Below, one piece after another: positions 9,962 to 19,505 of a stretch of DNA of 64,000 nucleotides. A model generated the notes under the pieces. The model worked only from the letters and a program-made list of their open reading frames with translations. It was not told the origin of the DNA and made no database searches. Made by a program: the position numbers and the translations under genes. Positions within the stretch are counted from its first letter, which is position 1. Every line of letters starts with the position of its first letter. This DNA is from Collinsella aerofaciens (GTDB taxonomy: Bacteria; Actinomycetota; Coriobacteriia; Coriobacteriales; Coriobacteriaceae), in contig JAJXHK010000006.1 of assembly GCA_021639365.1 (NCBI GenBank), positions 5,797 to 69,796 on the forward strand, read 5' to 3'.

Positions 9962-10013
9962 ACCGCGGCGGCATTGGGTATCTCAATCGAAACCTCAACC
10001 GATTGGAGACACC

Positions 10014-10259
10014 ATGGCTACTGATCACGAACTCGTGCTCTACGTTATGACTGGCTGCCCGTATTGTATAAAGGTCAAGCGCTTTTTGGCCGATAACGGC
10101 GTGACCATTCCCGAACGCAATATCTCGACTGACCCTGATGCCGAGCAGACGCTCATCGCCGTCGGCGGAAAACGCCAGGTTCCCTGCCTGTTCATCGACG
10201 GCAAGCCGCTCTACGAATCGAGTGACATCATCGCGTGGATACAGAAGAACCTGCTCTAG
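10014..10259 (+). CDS. Glutaredoxin family protein
   Basis: CPYC active site; GGKRQVPCLFIDG. Confidence 0.9.
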   Translation: MATDHELVLYVMTGCPYCIKVKRFLADNGVTIPERNISTDPDAEQTLIAVGGKRQVPCLFIDGKPLYESSDIIAWIQKNLL

Positions 10260-10260
10260 C

Positions 10261-10478
10261 ACTCATTGGGGACGCACTTAAATGAGTAGTTTCACTCATT
10301 GGGGACGTACTTAAATGAGTAGTCGTTAAAGAACGTCCCCAAATAACTAGCCCTGCCGAACCCAAACATGTACGTCAGCATCCAAAGTCGACATTTTTCG
10401 ACACCTTTGGATGCTGGCGTACAGCTTTTTGCGCGGGTCCCTCACAACCACTCATTGGGGACGTACTTAAATGAGTAG
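10261..10478. repeat. Composite repeat: family A units plus a family B hairpin (left boundary of cassette)
   Basis: ACTCATTGGGGACGYACTTAAATGAGTAG at 10261, 10294 and 10450. Hairpin TGTACGTCAGCATCCAAAG/CTTTGGATGCTGGCGTACA at 10369-10423. Confidence 0.88.
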
Positions 10479-10505
10479 GTAGGAATTCAGTTTCTCATAT
10501 TTATA

Positions 10506-10533
10506 GAACATACGTTTGCTTATATGCTATACT
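10506..10533 (+). promoter_or_regulatory. LexA-type SOS box overlapping a promoter with extended -10
   Basis: GAAC-ATAC-GTTT (10506-10517), one mismatch to the Gram-positive GAAC-N4-GTTC box; TG-C-TATACT at 10525-10533. Confidence 0.6.
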
Positions 10534-10733
10534 CGCCTCAAGGCATGAGACTGGTCGAGAGATCCCGCGGAGGTCCCCAATGACACGCTGGAGCGAGCTC
10601 GGTAAGTAAGATCGGTGGTTACTGCACTCGTCCATCTCAGACAGGTTGCGCTCCTGTTCGCCGTCGCCATCAAAGAACGGCACTCACAACCAAACGTTTC
10701 CGTTATCCGTGAGTCACACAGGAGTGCATCGTT

Positions 10734-12020
10734 ATGGCTAAAAAGATTCCAACCCTTTCACCCGACATTATTTCAAACACCTGCTCAGATATCAGCAGGA
10801 TTGTCGAGGCCAAACACCTCGGCCAGAAAGGTATCAACCATGAGACCTCCTCGGAAGGGGCTCTGCTCATCGGGCGCCGTCTCGAGCAAGAGATTGCCGG
10901 ATACCCCATCTCCAATCTCAATGGCTTACTCTCGCCCATCGCTTGCCACCTCAAGCAGCACTTTAGCCCAAGCCTAGGCCCGACTTATCTCAAGCGTTGC
11001 ATAAAGCTCGCACGAATTGTTCCGGAAGACATGGGTTTTCGACCGGAGCTTGATCTGGAACACTATCAGTCGCTCGCTCACATCGCCGACAAAGATCTGC
11101 GCTTAGATCTGATGAACGTTGCCGCGGATAACCATTGGAGCGCATTGCGCATCGATCGTCATGTCCGCTATCGAAGTCCGCAGGACACTTTGGATGCTTG
11201 GGAGCGCCGTGTGCTTGAATCAAATCAAGAAGTACGGCGCTTCGCCCGCGCCTACACAGATGCCTGTGGAATCATTTCACTCGATGAACTTATTGAGCTC
11301 TACAACTCCTGTGCCCCCAATCCAGTCTCGAGATTTGAGATAAATGAGACTATTTGGCAAATCAGGAACGAATCGGGACAAATCGACAATCCCTGCATTA
11401 TATCCAGAGATAGAAAACTCTATCTCATAGCGCCAGAGCTCGATGACGCTGTTGATGAAGCCCCTTATTACTATGATGACTACGGATACTCCTATCGAAA
11501 ATATGAACGGCACAGCGAATACACCGGTGAGATGCGCGCGCTGCGCGAACGGCGCGTTGGCATCAGAGTAGCAGCCATCTTCGCCGGTCACGAACGTCTT
11601 CCAATCAGAAGGCTCAGCTATGACGAAGTCATCTGCGGGCATATAAAGTGCAGTCGATCTGTCGAACGACTCAAGCAGTACGTCCTGAGAGACCCTGAGC
11701 TCAAGGCATCTGATTTCCATGCAAGAGAAGATGAGTTCGATTTCATCATGACAAAGCTTTTGCGTTCCGTTGGACTCAACGGTATGCCGACAGCCCAGCA
11801 AATTGCCGAAGACGCAGCTTTCTTATTGATTGTCGTACGACCCGAGCTTTATGAACGCAATAAAACAGCCGAGGTCTCCAAGCTCCTCTCGATAATCTAT
11901 GAAGACGCTCCCCTCTGGGAGTTCAACGGACGTTCGCATACCGAGCTAAAAAGCGAAGGAGTGGTGGAGTCTCCGATGTCGGCTTTACATCGAGAAGTCC
12001 CATCAAAACAGGCCGCTTAA
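10734..12020 (+). CDS. Hypothetical protein: DUF1016/YhcG N-terminal-like domain fused to an unrelated C-terminal region
   Basis: LLIGRRL...HLKQHF...YLKRC...LDLEHYQSL...WSALRIDRHV follows the DUF1016_N pattern. RBS AGGAG; lower GC than flanks. Confidence 0.65.
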   Translation: MAKKIPTLSPDIISNTCSDISRIVEAKHLGQKGINHETSSEGALLIGRRLEQEIAGYPISNLNGLLSPIACHLKQHFSPSLGPTYLKRCIKLARIVPEDMGFRPELDLEHYQSLAHIADKDLRLDLMNVAADNHWSALRIDRHVRYRSPQDTLDAWERRVLESNQEVRRFARAYTDACGIISLDELIELYNSCAPNPVSRFEINETIWQIRNESGQIDNPCIISRDRKLYLIAPELDDAVDEAPYYYDDYGYSYRKYERHSEYTGEMRALRERRVGIRVAAIFAGHERLPIRRLSYDEVICGHIKCSRSVERLKQYVLRDPELKASDFHAREDEFDFIMTKLLRSVGLNGMPTAQQIAEDAAFLLIVVRPELYERNKTAEVSKLLSIIYEDAPLWEFNGRSHTELKSEGVVESPMSALHREVPSKQAA

Positions 12021-12033
12021 CCCTATTAACTGC

Positions 12034-12065
12034 TTGCATTTTTGTCTACAAAACTGTATACAAAA
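12034..12065 (+). promoter_or_regulatory. TA operon promoter with palindromic operator
   Basis: TTGCAT-17 nt-TATACA. Near-perfect palindrome TTTTGTCTACAAAA in the spacer and a second TGTATACAAAA over the -10. Confidence 0.65.
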
Positions 12066-12077
12066 AGAGAGGCCCTT

Positions 12078-12344
12078 ATGGAGCTCATCGCAATCCACCC
12101 CCATGCCCTCAAGCACGGGCTGACGGAGACGGATATTACATGCGCCTGGAACTCCGCTTTCGCATGGTTCAGGCGTGATCTTGAAAATGGAGGTATCGAT
12201 TACGTTCTCGTTGGACTTGATGGAAGAAGCCGTCTCATGGAACTCATCGCTCGATATTGCCCCGATCGAGATGGCTACATCATTTACCACGCCCTTGTCC
12301 CTCCTACACGCAAGGTGCTCAGAGAAATCGGGATCGATCGATAG
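12078..12344 (+). CDS. Putative type II toxin (RelE/BrnT-like)
   Basis: 88 aa, HALKHG...DI..AW...VGLD...RLMEL...IIYHA. Lies directly upstream of an RHH gene. Confidence 0.65.
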   Translation: MELIAIHPHALKHGLTETDITCAWNSAFAWFRRDLENGGIDYVLVGLDGRSRLMELIARYCPDRDGYIIYHALVPPTRKVLREIGIDR

Positions 12345-12352
12345 GAGGCGCT

Positions 12353-12619
12353 ATGGACGCTAAGCAGCTCGAGAAGATGATGGGGTTTGCCCCCGGAGAG
12401 CTGGAAAAGGCCGCAGAGGCATACGAAAAAGATGAGTGGCCAAAGGGTCGCACCATCAAGTTGGGAAGGCCGCCGATCTCCGATGAGCCAAGCGTTGTTT
12501 TGTCGGCACGCGTGGGTGAATCGGTTCTTGAAGCGTTTGACGCAAAGGCAAGGCGTCACGGGCAAACACGCACGGAGCGACTCAGAGAGCTCATTACGCT
12601 CGATGCAATGATCGCCTAG
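12353..12619 (+). CDS. Putative antitoxin, ribbon-helix-helix (CopG-like)
   Basis: GRPP...VVLSARV...LEAFDAKARRHGQTRTERLRELI. RBS AGGAGG. Confidence 0.75.
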   Translation: MDAKQLEKMMGFAPGELEKAAEAYEKDEWPKGRTIKLGRPPISDEPSVVLSARVGESVLEAFDAKARRHGQTRTERLRELITLDAMIA

Positions 12620-12775
12620 CCCCCGCCGAACCCAAACGTGTACGCCAGCATCCAAAGTCGACATTTTTCGACATCTTTGGATGCTGGCGTACAGCTTTTT
12701 TGCGCGGGTCCCTCACAACCACTCATTGGGGACGCACTTAAATGAGTAGTCGTTTAAGAACGTCCCCAACGACTA
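12616..12775. repeat. Composite repeat (family B hairpin plus family A), direct copy of 10347-10478
   Basis: About 133 bp near-identical to 10347-10478, then continues into the second family A arm AAGAACGTCCCCAA. Confidence 0.9.
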
Positions 12776-12793
12776 CCCGATGACACGGCGATC

Positions 12794-13840
12794 CTATTCC
12801 TCGATCTCTTTCCAGCATTGCGGGTCGGCTTCGTACATATCGCCTGCGTAGCCATACGTCACAGCGGGGCAGCCGCGGCACCAGCCAAAAAGTTCGCATT
12901 TGGAGCACTTCTTGAACTTTTTAAAGTCGCGCTTTGCTTCCATCTGCGGTGAAAAGAAAAGTTCCTCGAGCGAGTTCTCGGCGACGTTGCCCACCTTGCT
13001 CTCCATGCGACGGCACGCATAGACGTCGCCCGTAGGCAGCACCGTCATATGGCCCGTACCGCAATGGCAGCCGTCGTAGATCATGCCGGGCTTGGCGCTC
13101 TTGGGGATGGTGAATTTGCCCTGCTCCCACAAAAGGAGCGTCCACAGGTGATCTTTGAGCTGGAAGAACGTCTTGCAGCCCGCAGCCTGGTGGAACTCCA
13201 TGCGCTCCTGCGCGGCCAGCAGCACGTCGCGATATTCCAGCGGCTCCAGATGGAACTCTTCGCGCTTCTGGCCCGAGGTGGGGCAGTATCGCCCAAAGGC
13301 GAATACATCGGCCTCGAGGCTTGCCACCAGGTCAATAAGCTGCGGCAGCTCGGCGGCATTCATACTCGAAACCGTATTCATAATGGCGACCCAAATACCT
13401 GCGCGCTTAAGGCACCCAATCGCACGCAAGGTCTCGACAAACGAGCCGGGTTTACGGAAGTAATCGTGCGTTTTCTCGAGTCCATCGAGCGAAAGCTGGT
13501 ATTTGCGGCACCCCAGCTCTTTCATGCGAGCGCAGGCCTCGTCGGTCAGATGGAACGGATTGCCCATCACGCACCACATAAAACCCCGCCCGTGCAAGAG
13601 CTCGGCAAGGCGCCAAAAATCGGGATGAAGAATGGGGTCGCCGCCCGTAACGTAAAAGTACGGCTGACGACCGATGCGTTCACAGAGCGCCTGGGCCTGA
13701 TCGACGACCTGGACCATCTGTTCCCACGGCATGCGCTTAAAACCGGCGCAGGCACCGTTGGCAAAGATATAGCAATGTTTGCAGCGCTGATCGCATTCAT
13801 CCGTAATGTGCCATTGGAAGGCAAACGCAGGCTTTTGCAT
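12794..13840 (-). CDS. acgM: Radical SAM/SPASM domain maturase, ACGX system
   Basis: FQWHITDECDQRCKHCY (CX3CX2C), TGGDP, SPASM CHCG...GDVYAC...KCSKC...CRGCPA...DPQC. Downstream of an ACGX-repeat peptide; RBS AAGGAG before ATG 13840. Confidence 0.88.
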   Translation of the reverse strand: MQKPAFAFQWHITDECDQRCKHCYIFANGACAGFKRMPWEQMVQVVDQAQALCERIGRQPYFYVTGGDPILHPDFWRLAELLHGRGFMWCVMGNPFHLTDEACARMKELGCRKYQLSLDGLEKTHDYFRKPGSFVETLRAIGCLKRAGIWVAIMNTVSSMNAAELPQLIDLVASLEADVFAFGRYCPTSGQKREEFHLEPLEYRDVLLAAQERMEFHQAAGCKTFFQLKDHLWTLLLWEQGKFTIPKSAKPGMIYDGCHCGTGHMTVLPTGDVYACRRMESKVGNVAENSLEELFFSPQMEAKRDFKKFKKCSKCELFGWCRGCPAVTYGYAGDMYEADPQCWKEIEE

Positions 13841-13886
13841 CGTGGGACTCCCTTGGTCGATGCTGAAACTGATGACGGTATTTGGG

Positions 13887-14507
13887 CTACAGGCGCGCAA
13901 CGGCGCCGACGGGGCAATTCTCGACACAGGCACCGCAATGCAGGCAGTGCTCGGGCTCTATGCGATACGAGTCTCCCGGCTCGATGCACTTCTGCGGGCA
14001 GTGCTCAAGGCAGGTGCCGCAACCGATACACGCATCGGCATCGATGCAGAAGCCCTTGGCGGGCGCAGGTGCCATGCTCTCGTCCAAGGTAAAGACCGCG
14101 CGCTCGATGGGATGAACTCCCAGGTTAAAGTAGTCGAGCACTATGTTCTCAACCTTAAGGATGATGTTGATCTCGCGCGTATCACCGGGATACACGTTGG
14201 CAAGATACGGCTGCTCGGCATAAATGACATCGCGCCAGTGAACTTGCTCGGACTCCGAGACGGGGGCGGCAACGCCGGACATGCGGATCATCTCGTTAAA
14301 TCGCGTGTGGACGAGCGTTTGGACACGCCCGTCTGCCATAAGCTGACGGGCCATCTCCTTGCCACGCGCCGTGAGGAAGTAGATGGCGCGGGGCTCGTAA
14401 TGGACGGCGCTTACGCAGCGAATTTGCGGCGCGCCACTCTCGTCCACGGTTGCCAGGGAGAGCGTCCCGGCAAGCTGCATCTTTTTGAGGCAAGTCTGAG
14501 CATCCAT
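13887..14507 (-). CDS. PNPOx-like split-barrel domain fused to a 2x[4Fe-4S] ferredoxin
   Basis: LATVDESGAPQIR...YFLTARGK; C-terminal CIGCGTCLEHCP and CLHCGACVENCP. Confidence 0.88.
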   Translation of the reverse strand: MDAQTCLKKMQLAGTLSLATVDESGAPQIRCVSAVHYEPRAIYFLTARGKEMARQLMADGRVQTLVHTRFNEMIRMSGVAAPVSESEQVHWRDVIYAEQPYLANVYPGDTREINIILKVENIVLDYFNLGVHPIERAVFTLDESMAPAPAKGFCIDADACIGCGTCLEHCPQKCIEPGDSYRIEPEHCLHCGACVENCPVGAVARL

Positions 14508-14531
14508 TACGAGCCCCTTCCTAGCGATTGC

Positions 14532-14765
14532 TTACTGAGCGTCGGCAGCGCCGCAAGCGGTGCTGCAGGCAGGAGCGGTCTTGGGGTCGGCGGAACCGCA
14601 GGCAGGGGCAGCAGCCGGGTCAGCAGAGCCGCAGGCAGGAGCGGCAGCCGGGTCAGCAGAGCCGCAAGCGGGAGCGGCCTTGGGGTCGGCGGAGCCGCAA
14701 GCGGGCGCAGGATCGGCAGTACCGCAGGAGGCGAAAGCGGCAACGTTCTCGAGATTCTCGGACAT
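14532..14765 (-). CDS. acgA: ACGX-repeat peptide (putative RiPP precursor), 77 aa
   Basis: RBS AAAGGA, then MSENLENVAAFASCGTADPAPACGSADPKAAPACGSADPAAAPACGSADPAAAPACGSADPKTAPACSTACGAADAQ. 33-nt tandem repeats; 7 Cys. Confidence 0.85.
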   Translation of the reverse strand: MSENLENVAAFASCGTADPAPACGSADPKAAPACGSADPAAAPACGSADPAAAPACGSADPKTAPACSTACGAADAQ

Positions 14766-14885
14766 GGCATTTCCTTTCGGTCGAGGATGGCCGGGCGAAG
14801 CCATCCAGTTTTTGACGCTCCTTGCGTCTATATGCATCATGCAAAAAGTGCGCAACGACAAAAAGAAGGCACCAATCTATTAGCC

Positions 14886-14903
14886 AGTTACCAAAAGGTA
14901 AGT
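14886..14903. promoter_or_regulatory. Putative HxlR-family operator
   Basis: AGTTACCAAAAGGTAAGT, an imperfect palindrome in the divergent promoter. A near-identical motif occurs at 39235 beside the paralogous HxlR gene. Confidence 0.6.
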
Positions 14904-14964
14904 AGTAGCCACAAGCGATAGCGGCTGCGATAATGAAAGCCGTTCACACGATTGAGGGGTCTCC

Positions 14965-15297
14965 ATGCTTACCAAAGAAGAACTGCCTCCCTGCCCTGTT
15001 GCCACGTGTTTTCAACTCTTTGGCAACAAGTGGAAGATCTATATCATCCAGCAGCTCATTAACCGTCCCATGGGCTTTAACGCGCTGCATCGCGCTATCC
15101 CGGGCATTAGCCAAAAGGTACTCTCGTCCAACCTCAAGGAAATGGATGCCGCGGGCCTCATCACGCGTACCGTCATCCCCGAGACACCCATCCGCACCGA
15201 ATACGCACTCAGTGAGCTGGGCCACAGCCTTATGCCCATCATCGATTCCCTAGTGGAATGGGGCACCGACTATCAGCAGCTCGTGCGAAACTCCTAA
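14965..15297 (+). CDS. HxlR/DUF24 winged-helix regulator with N-terminal Cys
   Basis: LPPCPVATCFQLFGNKW...GISQKVL...L.EM...P.RTEYALSELG. Confidence 0.9.
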   Translation: MLTKEELPPCPVATCFQLFGNKWKIYIIQQLINRPMGFNALHRAIPGISQKVLSSNLKEMDAAGLITRTVIPETPIRTEYALSELGHSLMPIIDSLVEWGTDYQQLVRNS

Positions 15298-15438
15298 CGA
15301 CCACACACTTTCGCACATTGAGCGCCGTGGGGCATACCGCTCCACGGCGCTTACCTTTTTGTGCCTTCTTTTACCGTTGTGCGCCAGGCGGCACACTACT
15401 GTCGAATGCAACCGACTCAATCGAACAGGAGGAAGGTC

Positions 15439-16224
15439 ATGAATCAGGCCGAGCGCCGCGTTTGGCTTATCAAAGCATTGCTCGATGAGCGGCCAGACGG
15501 GTGCAGTATTGCTGTACCTGCCGGAGCCAGCGAACATCGCAATTTGCTCAGAGCCCTTATGAACGTGCGCCTGCCCGAGGCGCTTGCGACCGAGACACTC
15601 GACATACAAGACGCCTACTTGCAGCAACGCCTTCTTGAGCGCGGCGGGGCGACCGACGCCGGCACGCTCCCCTACCGCGATCGCGTTGCCATCTGGCGCG
15701 GCGACATTACGCTGCTTAAGGCCGACGCCATCGTCAATGCCGCCAACAGCCAAATGCTCGGCTGCTTTGTACCGGGGCATCGCTGCATCGACAACGCCAT
15801 CCACACCTACGCCGGCATGCAGCTACGTCTGGCGTGCGCCAATCTCATGAACGAGCAAGGGCACGAGGAACCAACGGCGCGCGTCAAGGTCACGCCGGCG
15901 TTCAACCTGCCCAGCAGCTACGTTTTCCACACCGTCGGCCCTATCGTGCCCAGCCACAAGCCTGGCCCGCGCGAGGAATTGCTGCTACGGCGCTGCTACG
16001 CCAGCTGCTTGGAAGAAGCGACGCGCCGAGGACTCGGCACACTTGCATTCTGCTGTATCTCTACCGGCGTCTTTGGCTATCCGCAAAAGGCCGCCGCGCG
16101 CGTCGCCATCGATGCCGTTCGCCATCATCTAGACCATAACGACCCCAACCTTAAGGTGATCTTCAATGTTTTTCTCGCGTCTGACGAGGCAATCTACCGC
16201 AGCCTTCTCCAAACAAATCGATAA
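15439..16224 (+). CDS. Zn-binding macrodomain protein (protein-ADP-ribose hydrolase)
   Basis: GDIT, DAIVNAAN, Zn loop CFVPGHRCIDNAIH, HTVGP, CISTGVFGYP. RBS AGGAGG. Confidence 0.9.
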   Translation: MNQAERRVWLIKALLDERPDGCSIAVPAGASEHRNLLRALMNVRLPEALATETLDIQDAYLQQRLLERGGATDAGTLPYRDRVAIWRGDITLLKADAIVNAANSQMLGCFVPGHRCIDNAIHTYAGMQLRLACANLMNEQGHEEPTARVKVTPAFNLPSSYVFHTVGPIVPSHKPGPREELLLRRCYASCLEEATRRGLGTLAFCCISTGVFGYPQKAAARVAIDAVRHHLDHNDPNLKVIFNVFLASDEAIYRSLLQTNR

Positions 16225-17125
16225 GCTCCGAGCTGCACTCGATGCATCTGACGCCGTGGTAATCGGTGCGGGAGCAGGACTCTCGACCGCCGCCGGCTAC
16301 ACCTATTCGGGCGAGCGATTCGACGAGCTCTTTGGCGACTTTGCCGCACGCTACGGCTTTGCCGATATGTATTCCGGCGGCTTCTATCCTTACGACTCGC
16401 TCGAGGAGCACTGGGCGTTTTGGAGCCGCTACATTATGTGCAACCGATACGACCCCATACCGACGCCGCTCTACGAACAGCTCTTGAACATCGTGCGCGG
16501 GCGCGACTACTTTGTGCTGACTACGAATGTAGACCATTGCTTCCAGCGCGCCGGCTTTGACAAGCAGCGACTCTTTTACACGCAGGGAGACTACGGCCTG
16601 CTCCAGTGCAGCAAGCCTTGCTGCCAGGAGACATGGGATAACGAAGAGCTCATACGTTACATGGTCGCCGCCCAACAGGATCTGCGCATTCCATCTGCGC
16701 TCGTGCCCCACTGTTCTCACTGTGGCGCCCCGCTTACGATGAACTTGCGCGCCGACGACACGTTTGTCCAGGACAAGGGGTGGTACGCTGCCGCCGATCG
16801 CTACCAGGATTTCCTGCGCCGCCACAACAACATGCGCGTTCTGTTCTTGGAGCTTGGCGTAGGCGGCAATACGCCCGTCATCATCAAATACCCGTTTTGG
16901 CAGATGACCGCCAAAAACGAGCGCGCCATGTATGCATGCGTCAACCTTGGCGAGGTAGTCGCCCCTGCAGAAATCGCCGATCGCAGCATCCTGATTGACG
17001 CCGACGCAGGGCGCGTGCTGGACGCACTTGCCGTCCAAGCCATCAGATTACAAAGGCGATACTGTCTCATAAACACATGTACGTCAGCATCCAAAGTCCA
17101 ACATAGTCATTGGGGACGTTCTTAA
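16166..17125 (+). CDS. Class M sirtuin (SirTM-like Sir2 family)
   Basis: IGAGAGLS, TTNVDH, TQGDYG (Gln at the usual catalytic His position, typical of SirTM), CSKPC...CSHC, LELGVGGNTP.IIK. C-terminus reads into a repeat. Confidence 0.88.
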   Translation: MFFSRLTRQSTAAFSKQIDKLRAALDASDAVVIGAGAGLSTAAGYTYSGERFDELFGDFAARYGFADMYSGGFYPYDSLEEHWAFWSRYIMCNRYDPIPTPLYEQLLNIVRGRDYFVLTTNVDHCFQRAGFDKQRLFYTQGDYGLLQCSKPCCQETWDNEELIRYMVAAQQDLRIPSALVPHCSHCGAPLTMNLRADDTFVQDKGWYAAADRYQDFLRRHNNMRVLFLELGVGGNTPVIIKYPFWQMTAKNERAMYACVNLGEVVAPAEIADRSILIDADAGRVLDALAVQAIRLQRRYCLINTCTSASKVQHSHWGRS

Positions 17126-17159
17126 ATGACTAGTCGTTAAAGAACGTCCCCAATGACTA
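17078..17159. repeat. Half family B hairpin plus a complete family A palindrome
   Basis: TGTACGTCAGCATCCAAAGT, then TAGTCATTGGGGACGTTCTT...AAGAACGTCCCCAATGACTA, between convergent genes. Confidence 0.88.
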
Positions 17160-17160
17160 A

Positions 17161-18120
17161 CTAGCCGCGAAAGCGGGCTATGGGCGCGAGCGGCTGCTCG
17201 CGAAAGACGCGCTCGACGGCGGCGCGGTATTCGTCGACCTTTTTGGTTTTGCGCACGATCTTGTGAACGGTAGCGGGATCGGCGAAGGCGCACTTGGCGT
17301 AGAACCACCACTCCTTCATGCGAAAGACCGCGTTGCCGCCAATCTCTTCTGCATACGCCGCAAACAGCGTGTCGTGGAAGCGCTTCAGTTCAGCTGCCGT
17401 GGCCGCAGGACCGCCGGCAACCATGCGAGCCAGCGCAGGGTTCGCGAGCAAGCCGCGCCCCAGCATTACATGGCGCGTGCCGGGATAGGCCTCCACCAGC
17501 GCATCCATGTCCCCAAGATCAAAGATGTCGCCGTTGTAGGCCACCGGGAACGGTGCCCGCTCCAGCGTCTCGCCGTAAAACTCTTTGCGCGGCGAGCCCG
17601 TATAGCGGTCCTTTTGCACGCGCGGATGCACGATCAGCTCTGCCAGCGGCATGCGGCAATAGAGGTCGAGCACACGCTCGTACTCGTCGTCGCTCTGCAG
17701 TCCCAGCCTAGTTTTTACCGACACCGGCAATGGCGAGCGTTCGCACACGTCGCTCAAGAACACCTCGAGCTCATCCAGATTGCGCAGAAAGCCCGAGCCC
17801 TTCCCCTTGGCGACAACCGTGCCCGAGGGGCAGCCAAGGTTGAGATTGACCTCGTGATAACCCATGTCGGCGAGCACCTGCGCCGCCCACACAAACTCGT
17901 CCGCATTCTTGGACATCAGCTGAGGCACCACGTTGAGCCCCCGGTTATTGGCGGGATCGACCTCTTTAAACGCCTTACCGCCAAAGCGGTTGCCCACGCG
18001 CGGCGGCGGCAAAAACGGCGTGTAATAACAATCGAGTGCGCCAAAGCACTCCGCGTGCACGCGACGGAACACATGCCCGGTAATCCCCTCCATAGGGGCC
18101 AGCGATAAATACATCAACAT
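17161..18120 (-). CDS. tRNA-dihydrouridine synthase family protein
   Basis: LAPMEG, NLNLGCPS, KGSG, SVKTRLG, VHPR, YNGDI, VMLGRG. Confidence 0.9.
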   Translation of the reverse strand: MLMYLSLAPMEGITGHVFRRVHAECFGALDCYYTPFLPPPRVGNRFGGKAFKEVDPANNRGLNVVPQLMSKNADEFVWAAQVLADMGYHEVNLNLGCPSGTVVAKGKGSGFLRNLDELEVFLSDVCERSPLPVSVKTRLGLQSDDEYERVLDLYCRMPLAELIVHPRVQKDRYTGSPRKEFYGETLERAPFPVAYNGDIFDLGDMDALVEAYPGTRHVMLGRGLLANPALARMVAGGPAATAAELKRFHDTLFAAYAEEIGGNAVFRMKEWWFYAKCAFADPATVHKIVRKTKKVDEYRAAVERVFREQPLAPIARFRG

Positions 18121-18132
18121 CCACTCTCAACT

Positions 18133-18167
18133 CAATGTGACAAAGGGACAGTCCCTTTGTCACATTG
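18133..18167. repeat. REP-like perfect palindrome, family C
   Basis: CAATGTGACAAAGGGAC-A-GTCCCTTTGTCACATTG. Confidence 0.9.
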
Positions 18168-18371
18168 CAAATCATCATACGAGTGCTTATTTTGGCACAC
18201 ATACGTATCGGGCGGCATCATCGCGTGGGCACAGGAGCACCCGCTCTAAACCAGGGCAGTCGTGGCACTTTTGCCGTATGACCATGCGCTCATCGATGGC
18301 GGGATTCCCTATACTGAGTCACATATGACGGCATCGCGCCACAACGACCGCCACGACACCAAGGACCAGCT

Positions 18372-19505
18372 ATGGCAACACTCTCCGAACAAGAACGTAA
18401 GCGCATCCAGCGATACTGCATCTGCCCCAAGGTTGCCGGCGCGGCGCTTGCCATGGCATTCGTGCTGCCCTTATCGATCATACCTTTCGAAATGATCGAC
18501 GACATCGTCTTCCATCACGAAGGCTTCCATGAGACGGGCATGATGACCGCCTTGGTGCTCACCGCCATCGAGCTCGTCATATTCTGTTATTGCGCTCTCG
18601 CCCCGCGCTTTGGCATGCGTGGCAAGCAGTGGAAGGAAATGCAGTATCGGCTCGCCGTCGAGCAGAGCGAGAAAGACCGCTCGACACAGATCGCGGGCGT
18701 TGTTGGCACGCAGGCCGCCGCACGCCTGCTCAAGAACAGCGACAACGAGGCTGCACGCAACCTGGGCGGCGCGGCAGAAGTCGCCGCTGCCGCAGGCGCC
18801 GTCGCCACCGCGGCAGACGTGCTTGCCGAGAGCTTTGCCAACGCGAAGGCCATGGCAGAGGCCTGTGGCGTGCCCATCCCCCATGCAAAAAAGTGGATCG
18901 TCGCGCTTGTGGCGCTGCCCCTCGCAATCGTGTGCGGCGCCTATATCCCACAGCTGGCGCAGGGAAACATCGAGATGCAAGAAAACGCCGCAGCCGCGGC
19001 CGAGCAGATCGCCATCGCTCGCAAGGCGCTCGAGTCCTCATGCGAGTACGTATCCGCCGATGACCCCTACGAGCGATATCAAGACTACGGCTATCACGTC
19101 CGCGGCTATCTGCACGACGGCGGCTCCGATGCCCAGAAGACCTATACGTACCTGGATTTTGACAACAAGGGAACGCTCACGGAAGTGAGCTACGCGGCAG
19201 AAGTCGACCCCGGCGCGAGCCTCGAGGACAACCTTACCCGTATCGAGCTCGACCTTGACGAGCTTTCCTCTGCCGTCCAAACCATAGACGTCAAGACCAC
19301 AAGCCCCGAGCTCCTAGCAGCGCAGAAGCTCCCCGAAGAGTTTAGGCAGGCTTTTTTGAACGGCTCGCTCTACGAGAGAATCTCTATCAGGACGAGTGAC
19401 GACCCCATTAAAGCGTATTACTCGTTTGATACGGATCCTAAGGACGAGTTTGACGAGTACACCCATCCAACCATCCGCATTACGCTGATGAGCAAAACGA
19501 ACTAG
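18372..19505 (+). CDS. Hypothetical membrane protein
   Basis: 377-aa ORF with about three hydrophobic helices and an acidic C-terminal domain. RBS AAGGA. Confidence 0.75.
   Translation: MATLSEQERKRIQRYCICPKVAGAALAMAFVLPLSIIPFEMIDDIVFHHEGFHETGMMTALVLTAIELVIFCYCALAPRFGMRGKQWKEMQYRLAVEQSEKDRSTQIAGVVGTQAAARLLKNSDNEAARNLGGAAEVAAAAGAVATAADVLAESFANAKAMAEACGVPIPHAKKWIVALVALPLAIVCGAYIPQLAQGNIEMQENAAAAAEQIAIARKALESSCEYVSADDPYERYQDYGYHVRGYLHDGGSDAQKTYTYLDFDNKGTLTEVSYAAEVDPGASLEDNLTRIELDLDELSSAVQTIDVKTTSPELLAAQKLPEEFRQAFLNGSLYERISIRTSDDPIKAYYSFDTDPKDEFDEYTHPTIRITLMSKTN

Follow-up and report, generated by a model that had tools for sequence, protein, structure and literature searches.

What an Ala-Cys-Gly repeat (ACGX) peptide and the radical S-adenosylmethionine (SAM) enzyme beside it might do for a gut anaerobe is the question raised by a locus of Collinsella aerofaciens (assembly GCA_021639365.1, contig JAJXHK010000006.1, positions 5,797 to 69,796 of the forward strand). 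This stretch of 64,000 nucleotides was analysed whole and is called the window here; all positions are those of the window. An initial annotation, made from the letters alone, had described an operon of four genes, with a product that may be intracellular and stress-linked rather than a bacteriocin. Our results suggest that these genes belong to a six-gene accessory cassette for intracellular thiol or electrophile (oxidative) stress, a reading to which we give a probability of about 0.6.

The genes for the peptide, a flavin/ferredoxin fusion, a radical SAM/SPASM enzyme (AcgM) and an HxlR regulator were all found where the initial annotation had placed them (Table 1), and its account of the peptide was exact: 77 residues, seven Cys, five CG(S/T)ADP cores and a terminal ACSTACG. 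The cysteines lie at residues 14 (the first), 23, 34, 45, 56, 67 and 71, forming five Cys-x3-Asp cores and then Cys-x3-Cys-x3-Asp; the triplets around them are five ACG, one SCG and one ACS. The terminal ACS is a variant of this strain, the peptides of its relatives having ACG at that spot. The repeats in the gene are spaced 33 bp apart, and the gene lies 692 bp upstream of the AcgM gene on the same strand, with the fusion gene between the two in the Collinsella locus. The fusion matches PNPOx_N (PF01243) over residues 13-91 (41.6 bits, cut-off 28.1) and carries a C-terminal 2[4Fe-4S] domain of the Fer4 families. When the hidden Markov models of the ACGX families were applied, as had been proposed, the check came out positive for the enzyme and negative for the peptide. 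AcgM scored 528.6 bits against TIGR04340 (cut-off 400), which bears out the presumed ACGX membership for the enzyme; it is predicted to be a true ACGX maturase, and its nearest relatives (94-98% identity) are Collinsella. The peptide scored 8.1 bits against TIGR04341, under the cut-off of 28. Clostridial peptides score 52-91 bits against this model, and those of four other Coriobacteriia form a graded series from no hit to 28.2 bits, the last of which (locus L073) is the only one to pass. Because its sub-cut-off score falls within this series, the window peptide is classed as a divergent homologue of the ACGX precursors, apparently overlooked by TIGR04341 annotation, and not as a member of the model. 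The 45 Collinsella peptides that were read via an exact start motif have between four and nine Cys, the number changing by whole repeats with the frame preserved; an allele outside these 45 (locus L060) has 12 Cys.

The gene content first described was right for these four genes but stopped short of the full extent of the locus, since behind hxlR a Zn-macrodomain gene and a class M sirtuin (SirTM) gene had been missed, and the locus runs on to about 17103. The macrodomain, scored on a longer open reading frame (ORF), reached 316.6 bits against NF003163 (cut-off 272), and its best PDB matches (8rsi, 5kiv and 8rsl, E 1e-68 to 1e-60) are nearly full-length. The motif CxxxxHxC, whose spacing we take to be that of the zinc-binding loop of Zn-macrodomains, is found at residue 109, and 18 of 19 neighbours have it too. 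The window protein has both the zinc-binding loop and the N-terminal helical extension by which Zn-macrodomains are recognised. Class M sirtuins are defined by QG in place of the catalytic HG (PMC4518038), and alignment to 5a3a shows this replacement in the window protein, Q140-G141 being invariant across 24 aligned sequences. The two genes overlap at 16166-16224. The open frame of SirTM has 321 codons' worth of residues (321 aa) against 296 aa in close relatives; the approximately 25 extra codons (17050-17125) extend into the repeat region.

The six genes form a 4.3-kb block flanked by two palindromic repeats, borders which the initial annotation had not recognised. Both repeats belong to the direct-repeat family D1 (right member 17104-17153); the repeat folds as a hairpin, is present in 24 copies genome-wide, and is presumably of the kind called REP-like. 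The Collinsella loci with the enzyme number 70; in 60 of them the upstream sequence extends for 3.5 kb or more, and each of these 60 has all six genes. An empty site was first suggested by a wastewater metagenome contig that joins 12700 to 17118, with 34 letters on the short side of the junction, and was then tested in genomes. For this, 60 genomes of the genus were searched from the flanking dus gene and the 29 best-matching relatives were examined with 1.5-kb flanks: 25 show a direct junction to the far flank, one carries the cassette and three are uninformative. In the empty-site alignments the crossover falls within the palindromic repeats. Of 109 Collinsella genomes, the five that have AcgM are also the five with a SirTM at 88% identity or more, and the cassette is complete in the record of Collinsella aerofaciens ATCC 25986 (L071). 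The block is an accessory unit that is gained or lost whole; as the mechanism, we infer recombination between the border repeats. Phage records gave no match to the locus, and no Rfam family was found within 10000-18500.

Table 1. Positions of the cassette genes, border repeats and putative regulatory sites in the window
Feature	Position	Strand	Remarks
Left palindromic repeat, cassette border	12720-12775	.	about 56 bp
AcgM radical SAM/SPASM maturase	12794-13840	-	348 aa
PNPOx-like flavin-binding domain + 2[4Fe-4S] ferredoxin fusion	13887-14507	-	206 aa
AcgA-type Cys-repeat peptide	14532-14765	-	77 aa, 7 Cys
Operator-like site upstream of peptide gene (predicted HxlR box)	14861-14883	-	
HxlR/DUF24 regulator, N-terminal Cys-Pro-Val	14965-15297	+	PF01638, 94.6 bits
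Terminator-like hairpin after hxlR	15319-15353	+	15-bp stem; z = -8.0, 0/200 shuffles fold equally well
Second, weaker operator-like site upstream of macrodomain gene	15350-15372	+	
Zn-macrodomain (protein-ADP-ribose hydrolase)	15439-16224	+	261 aa
Class M sirtuin (SirTM)	16166-17125	+	PDB 5a3a, E 1.1e-67
Right palindromic repeat, cassette border	17104-17159	.	56 bp

Neighbourhoods beyond Collinsella were examined in a pool of 94 loci (80 metagenome loci, being the best 80 of at least 565, with 4 plasmid and 10 Coriobacteriia loci), which reduce to 60 clusters at 90% enzyme identity. Upstream sequence of 500 bp or more was available for 53 cluster representatives, and in 50 of them a Cys-repeat peptide stands upstream of the enzyme, a recurrence which argues that the pairing is not due to chance; in one of the three peptide-less representatives (L193) an SCG-variant peptide was found among the ORFs. 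Other neighbours were counted within 5 kb wherever the flanks reached at least 4 kb downstream and 1.5 kb upstream, which left 31 clusters once 29 with shorter flanks had been dropped. The initial annotation had expected both the fusion and a Cys-bearing HxlR to be conserved beside ACGX genes. This proved correct for the divergent HxlR, found in 27 of the 31 clusters with Cys-Pro kept in 42/42 HxlR neighbours examined, but the fusion was found in only 16. Every one of the 31 clusters has at least one oxidoreductase: besides the fusion, a nitroreductase (13 clusters), a zinc-binding dehydrogenase (9) or a flavin reductase (1). SirTM is present in 22, on the strand of the enzyme in 21 of these, and the macrodomain in 16. 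The order of the genes varies, SirTM and the macrodomain lying downstream of acgM in Slackia, Olsenella, Roseburia and Subdoligranulum and behind hxlR in Collinsella; the order in Roseburia is hxlR (divergent), acgA, acgM, nitroreductase, fusion, macrodomain, SirTM. The same parts recur, in shuffled order, across Coriobacteriia and Clostridia. That the locus holds neither protease nor exporter, as first described, is borne out for the six-gene block, and neither was found among the 60 most recurrent neighbour groups of the 94 loci, a coarse list in which all-against-all ORF clustering merged overlapping frames. The lack of a recurrent exporter or protease supports the earlier view that the product is intracellular and stress-linked rather than a bacteriocin.

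The relation between AcgM and SirTM was examined in genomes as well. AcgM is present in 9 of 301 Coriobacteriia genomes, and in a 401-genome sample of the phylum the TIGR04340 cut-off was passed by the C. aerofaciens genome alone, a tally that counts three unpublished genomes (G318, G088 and G120) as negatives. Actinomycetota matches below the cut-off (L236-L238) have no SirTM and no small ORF with at least three Cys-Gly. A close SirTM (identity of 53% or more, E < 1e-90) is found in all nine AcgM genomes of Coriobacteriia, against any SirTM match in 76 of the 301, the genomes being kin and not independent. Since 20 of the 29 genomes with a close SirTM are without AcgM, the link appears to be one-way. 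Among 28 SirTM loci without AcgM (those of 27 genomes, the best-scoring among 67 AcgM-negative ones with a match, and one paralogous locus), an HxlR homologue was found in 13 and a fusion homologue (32-36% identity) in four. Because such loci still carry HxlR or fusion homologues, HxlR, oxidoreductase, SirTM and macrodomain would thus constitute a wider stress module, of which peptide and maturase are an optional part. These counts also bear on the fusion, which had been proposed to supply electrons to the enzyme. With the fusion in 16/31 clusters only, a nitroreductase or a zinc-binding dehydrogenase replacing or joining it across the 31, and homologues beside SirTM in 4/28 maturase-free loci, that proposal is weakened, and the fusion does not appear to be a dedicated electron donor of the maturase.

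The regulator, with its HxlR domain and a conserved N-terminal Cys, has the marks of a DUF24 redox regulator. In HypR, a regulator of this type, the conserved N-terminal Cys is the sensor for diamide and NaOCl, and from an upstream site HypR activates a nitroreductase gene (PMC3351151). De novo search gave an operator-like motif scoring 529, as compared with 264-282 in shuffles; 34 of 46 representatives have such a conserved site, placed 79-164 bp upstream of where the peptide starts. In the C. aerofaciens genome, the site upstream of the peptide gene ranks first of 4,196,624 positions when scored with a matrix built without Collinsella, and also with one built without any named Coriobacteriia. 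The site upstream of the macrodomain gene ranks third of the 4,196,624 with the matrix lacking Collinsella; this site was spotted by eye before the matrix was built, so that its ranking is not a blind test, and a forced-palindrome matrix misses it. The motif was also found upstream of SirTM/macrodomain genes in 4 of 26 AcgM-free loci (one locus was too short and two were left out), as against 8 of 2130 background windows. A promoter scan of the locus gave results at chance level. The operator-like sites on both arms, the Cys-Pro of HxlR and the precedent of HypR make it likely that the two arms form a shared thiol-stress regulon, acting via the putative operator. As a separate observation, the second-ranked operator match of the genome (G000:C3:215) lies near a contig end, about 570 bp upstream of a gene that by eye looks Rrf2-type.

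We therefore favour, at the probability given above, an intracellular stress module that would work as follows. HxlR would sense an oxidant or electrophile at its N-terminal Cys and switch both arms through the shared operator, probably as a HypR-like activator. AcgM would oxidise each Ala-Cys-Gly cysteine of the peptide, the leader being hardly required. The peptide, uncut and unexported, may serve as a multivalent sulfur sink or metal buffer, with a capacity that scales with repeat number. The fusion would be one of several interchangeable oxidoreductases of the module and may reduce the maturase or recycle the peptide, while SirTM and the Zn-macrodomain would provide a reversible ADP-ribosylation switch in the same regulon. 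Several observations weigh against this scheme. On the side of regulation, the macrodomain site drops to rank 67 with the matrix built without Coriobacteriia, none of three ACGX-genome loci reaches the operator threshold upstream of SirTM/macrodomain genes, and a strong hairpin parts hxlR from the macrodomain gene; the signal of HxlR, moreover, could be an aldehyde or a quinone and not an oxidant. On the side of composition, within 5 kb SirTM is missing from 9 of the 31 clusters and the fusion from 15, and two ACGX plasmids are without any SirTM, in a search of the plasmids only. With respect to chemistry, SbtM, discussed below, is only the nearest named family to AcgM, at 180 bits under its own cut-off of 350, and none of 104 nearest representatives scores over the SbtM cut-off as a true SbtM would.

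The chemistry of AcgM was approached from both enzyme and substrate. The enzyme has the SAM cluster motif CxxxCxxC at residues 16, 20 and 23, and seven SPASM cysteines (258, 276, 312, 315, 321, 324 and 342) are invariant in 95 homologues, in which C20 is only nearly invariant. In the structural model (mean predicted local distance difference test 91.8) the barrel begins at residue 5, and there is no N-terminal RiPP recognition element (RRE; RiPP, a peptide made on the ribosome and modified after translation). Since the N-termini of the peptides are unrelated across loci and the first Cys stands anywhere between residues 6 and 42, it is doubtful that a leader is cleaved off. Scored against other families, AcgM gave 180 bits with SbtM (TIGR04082), 136 with AhbD, 102 with NirJ and 53 with PapB (cut-off 340). 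The SbtM score spans the whole of AcgM, which lacks the first 195 positions of the model, and of the nearest 50%-cluster representatives (104 scanned of 150 listed), 27 have SbtM as their second match at E < 1e-55. Fold and PDB searches with AcgM returned only generic SPASM enzymes at 14-19% identity and leave the chemistry undecided. The thiooxazole that SbtM forms at a Gly-Cys motif, with a loss of 4 Da, has an absorption at 304 nm and remains reactive towards iodoacetamide (PMC9204691; PMC11002830). PapB, for its part, joins Cys to Asp or Glu by a thioether in Cys-X3-Asp/Glu motifs (PMC9413430). Counted over 56 peptides with 311 motifs, the residue four places after Cys is Asp 164 times and another Cys 116 times; of the 195 Cys without Cys at +4, 164 have Asp and nine Glu. 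The window peptide has Asp at +4 for six of its seven Cys, which is the PapB-type ranthipeptide spacing; the +4 Asp is lost in loci L112, L113 and L150. Gly directly follows Cys save in 8 of 319 cases, counts that come from a detection pattern favouring Gly. On this evidence an SbtM-like 5-thiooxazole (-4 Da per Cys, thiol kept) is our tentative first choice, held with less than even confidence. A Cys-to-Asp thioether at Cys-x3-Asp (-2 Da), the default of the initial annotation, is weakened by the family scores (SbtM 180 against PapB 53 bits) and is still a plausible minority view by the Cys-x3-Asp spacing; some other chemistry is less likely. The readout proposed at first, -2 Da with loss of alkylation, could miss a thiooxazole product because SbtM gives -4 Da with a thiol that can still be alkylated. 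Among the wider homologues, four near the cut-off (P0127, P0129, P0130 and P0131) have 270-300 extra N-terminal residues without Pfam match, and P0253, a relative at greater distance, carries a fused old-yellow-enzyme domain.

The presence of SirTM raises the question of whether the modified peptide is itself its substrate. Text on SirTM/Zn-macrodomain systems reports that they take part in the oxidative-stress response (PMC4518038, PMC11490716) and that GcvH-L is the sole known SirTM target, the targets of other such systems being unknown (a 2024 paper, PMC11490716). In the extended operon, GcvH-L must be lipoylated before SirTM can ADP-ribosylate one of its Asp residues, and the carrier in its lipoylated form is bound by a flavin enzyme (PMC4518038). 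By analogy the ACGX peptide could be a ribosomal stand-in for lipoylated GcvH-L: AcgM would add the redox group, SirTM would turn it off at the +4 Asp, the Zn-macrodomain would turn it on again and the flavin enzyme would recycle it. In its full form, this would make the peptide a gene-encoded, radical SAM-made sulfur cofactor that replaces lipoyl-GcvH-L as an ADP-ribosylation-gated redox scavenger in lipoate-less gut anaerobes. The parts correspond one for one to those of the extended operon (carrier, modifying enzyme, SirTM, macrodomain, flavin oxidoreductase; PMC4518038), 164 of 311 motifs offer an Asp at Cys+4 (116 have Cys there), and no GcvH, lipoate ligase or lipoyl domain was found in the C. 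aerofaciens genome (97.8% complete), where lipoyl-related searches matched only a BirA-like ligase, a biotin carrier and a membrane-fusion-type protein. Two fully flanked loci that have wholly lost the Asp (L112 and L113) are also without SirTM on their plasmids. Against this, the absence of AcgM from 20 of the 29 close-SirTM genomes of Coriobacteriia implies that SirTM has other targets, and 9 of 31 ACGX clusters have no adjacent SirTM. AcgM and SirTM distances barely correlate (Spearman 0.14, n = 27; 48 of 500 permutations as high), a quick tree intermixes the ACGX-linked SirTMs with the unlinked ones (8 label changes, only 2 of them forced), several loci without adjacent SirTM keep the Asp, and L115 and L116 have SirTM yet have lost half or more of the +4 Asp. 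The candidate Rosetta-stone fusion of SirTM to AcgM was rejected, with none (0/20) of the long homologues scanned (of 150) containing a Pfam-recognisable SirTM. Co-regulation accounts for the data without direct contact between SirTM and peptide, and we consider both the substrate role and the cofactor role unlikely. Were they true, a RiPP would stand under ADP-ribosylation control and a second kind of SirTM target would be known. SirTM-like genes are also found elsewhere: L232 and many Collinsella genomes have a separate locus with two or three distant ones in tandem (35-40% identity), and the one stretch of this kind that was inspected has no macrodomain match.

Nor do we expect the peptide to be a ranthipeptide-type natural product, with Cys-to-Asp thioether rings, released by a housekeeping protease and exporter, for which the stress genes would be just co-regulated neighbours. 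The spacing agrees with the PapB motif (PMC9413430) at six of the seven window Cys and, more widely, at the 164 Asp and nine Glu of 195 motifs without Cys at +4. The enzyme does not, since its PapB score is just 53 bits and it has no RRE; the first Cys moves between residues 6 and 42 behind unrelated N-termini, protease and exporter do not recur, and the Asp is lost in L112, L113 and L150. While the ring chemistry itself is plausible, export is the unlikely part, and the reading as a whole is improbable. Less probable still, and hardly to be expected, is that the peptide is an unmodified small carrier or storage peptide for Fe-S clusters or metal serving the radical SAM enzyme and the ferredoxin, the enzyme acting on a small molecule. 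The AhbD and NirJ families of the heme pathway are indeed the next matches of AcgM (136 and 102 bits), and Cys-x3-Cys is found in 116 of 311 motifs. However, 50 of 53 clusters have the peptide next to the enzyme, almost all Cys are followed by Gly (8/319 exceptions, with the bias of the detection pattern towards Gly), and the nearest family modifies a peptide at Gly-Cys/Sec-Gly (PMC9204691).

Some further features were noted around the cassette and in its relatives. The block is one of a row of cassettes (10260-17159) split by the same palindromic repeat: a glutaredoxin gene, a 428-aa ORF with a toxin-antitoxin-like pair, the ACGX-SirTM block, and dus; the inner cassettes are each present or absent independently among relatives. 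A second palindromic repeat of 80 bp, in copies 95% identical at 10351-10478 and 12621-12749, adjoins the first and encloses the 428-aa ORF and the toxin-antitoxin-like genes, with a partial copy at 17071-17096. The 428-aa ORF (10734-12020) lies in a stretch of low G+C content, is patchy in Collinsella and has no Pfam or NCBIfam match; at 12042-12619 an ORF without family match and a ribbon-helix-helix protein are arranged like a type II toxin-antitoxin module. In other lineages, a Methanosphaera plasmid (L113:6428-10012) has an archaeal ACGX-like locus with HxlR and fusion, whose peptide is without the +4 Asp and whose maturase is annotated as two pieces. Unrelated inserts separate leader and repeats in some clostridial peptides (L165, L170, L178 and L184), and several loci have DUF1848 or DUF5131-like genes added after SirTM.

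The peptide/enzyme pair belongs to an already catalogued family. What the analysis adds, at the level of sequence, are the cassette borders with their empty sites, the one-way dependence on SirTM, a candidate shared operator and a fusion that appears not to be dedicated. No paper was found on the ACGX maturase or its family accessions, or on sirtuin, macrodomain, radical SAM and RiPP together, in a search outside whose coverage most subscription journals fall. The text of PMC11490716 has no occurrence of 'radical SAM' and that of PMC4518038 none of 'radical'; the supplements of the papers could still list ACGX neighbours. The 4.3-kb block joins two questions, that of a catalogued maturase for which no literature was found and that of SirTM targets beyond GcvH-L; it hints at an internal stress defence, with the peptide as a testable candidate target of SirTM and macrodomain. 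The cassette-bearing strain ATCC 25986 and the related empty-site genomes offer natural plus/minus comparisons, and reconstitution on a small scale would be possible. Even should the peptide not be a SirTM target, the chemistry of AcgM would set a large uncharacterised clade beside SbtM.

Of the known systems, the catalogued ACGX loci (TIGR04340 acgM, TIGR04341 acgA) share with the cassette the Ala-Cys-Gly peptide directly upstream of the enzyme, and the same gene names are used on Roseburia and Clostridium plasmids; the cassette differs in its ACGSADP single-Cys repeats, which fail TIGR04341, in the interposed fusion and in the repeat-bounded cassette with SirTM and macrodomain. Like SirTM/Zn-macrodomain operons, it has a QG-type sirtuin, a zinc-loop macrodomain, overlapping genes and an adjoining flavin oxidoreductase. 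In contrast to the extended operon (GcvH-L, LplA2, OYE, LLM), GcvH-L and LplA2 were not found in the genome, and in the Collinsella cassette peptide and radical SAM enzyme occupy their place. HypR-HypO is alike in that a regulator with N-terminal Cys adjoins a flavin oxidoreductase, a nitroreductase being near acgM in 13 of the 31 clusters; the operator sequence differs, and the HypR system has neither peptide nor radical SAM enzyme. The product of PapB/PapA is freyrasin, PapB carries an N-terminal RRE, and ranthipeptides are marked by a thioether from sulfur to a non-alpha carbon. With this ranthipeptide pair the ACGX peptide shares the repeated Cys-X3-Asp/Glu spacing, whereas the enzyme is distant (53 bits) and ACGX is without RRE or conserved leader. 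SbtM is the nearest characterised family, and its substrate motif GGUG (PMC9204691) resembles ACG; ACGX differs in having no selenocysteine, many repeats and gut anaerobes as hosts, SbtM being from Geobacter. Finally, if SbtM-like chemistry holds, the peptide would resemble the bufferins in having Cys-derived thiooxazoles in an uncut, protein-like stress peptide. Thiooxazole RiPPs are reported to bind copper (bioRxiv 10.1101/2024.03.18.585515). Bufferins, however, are MNIO-made and Sec-exported, whereas the window peptide, on reading, has no hydrophobic signal stretch.

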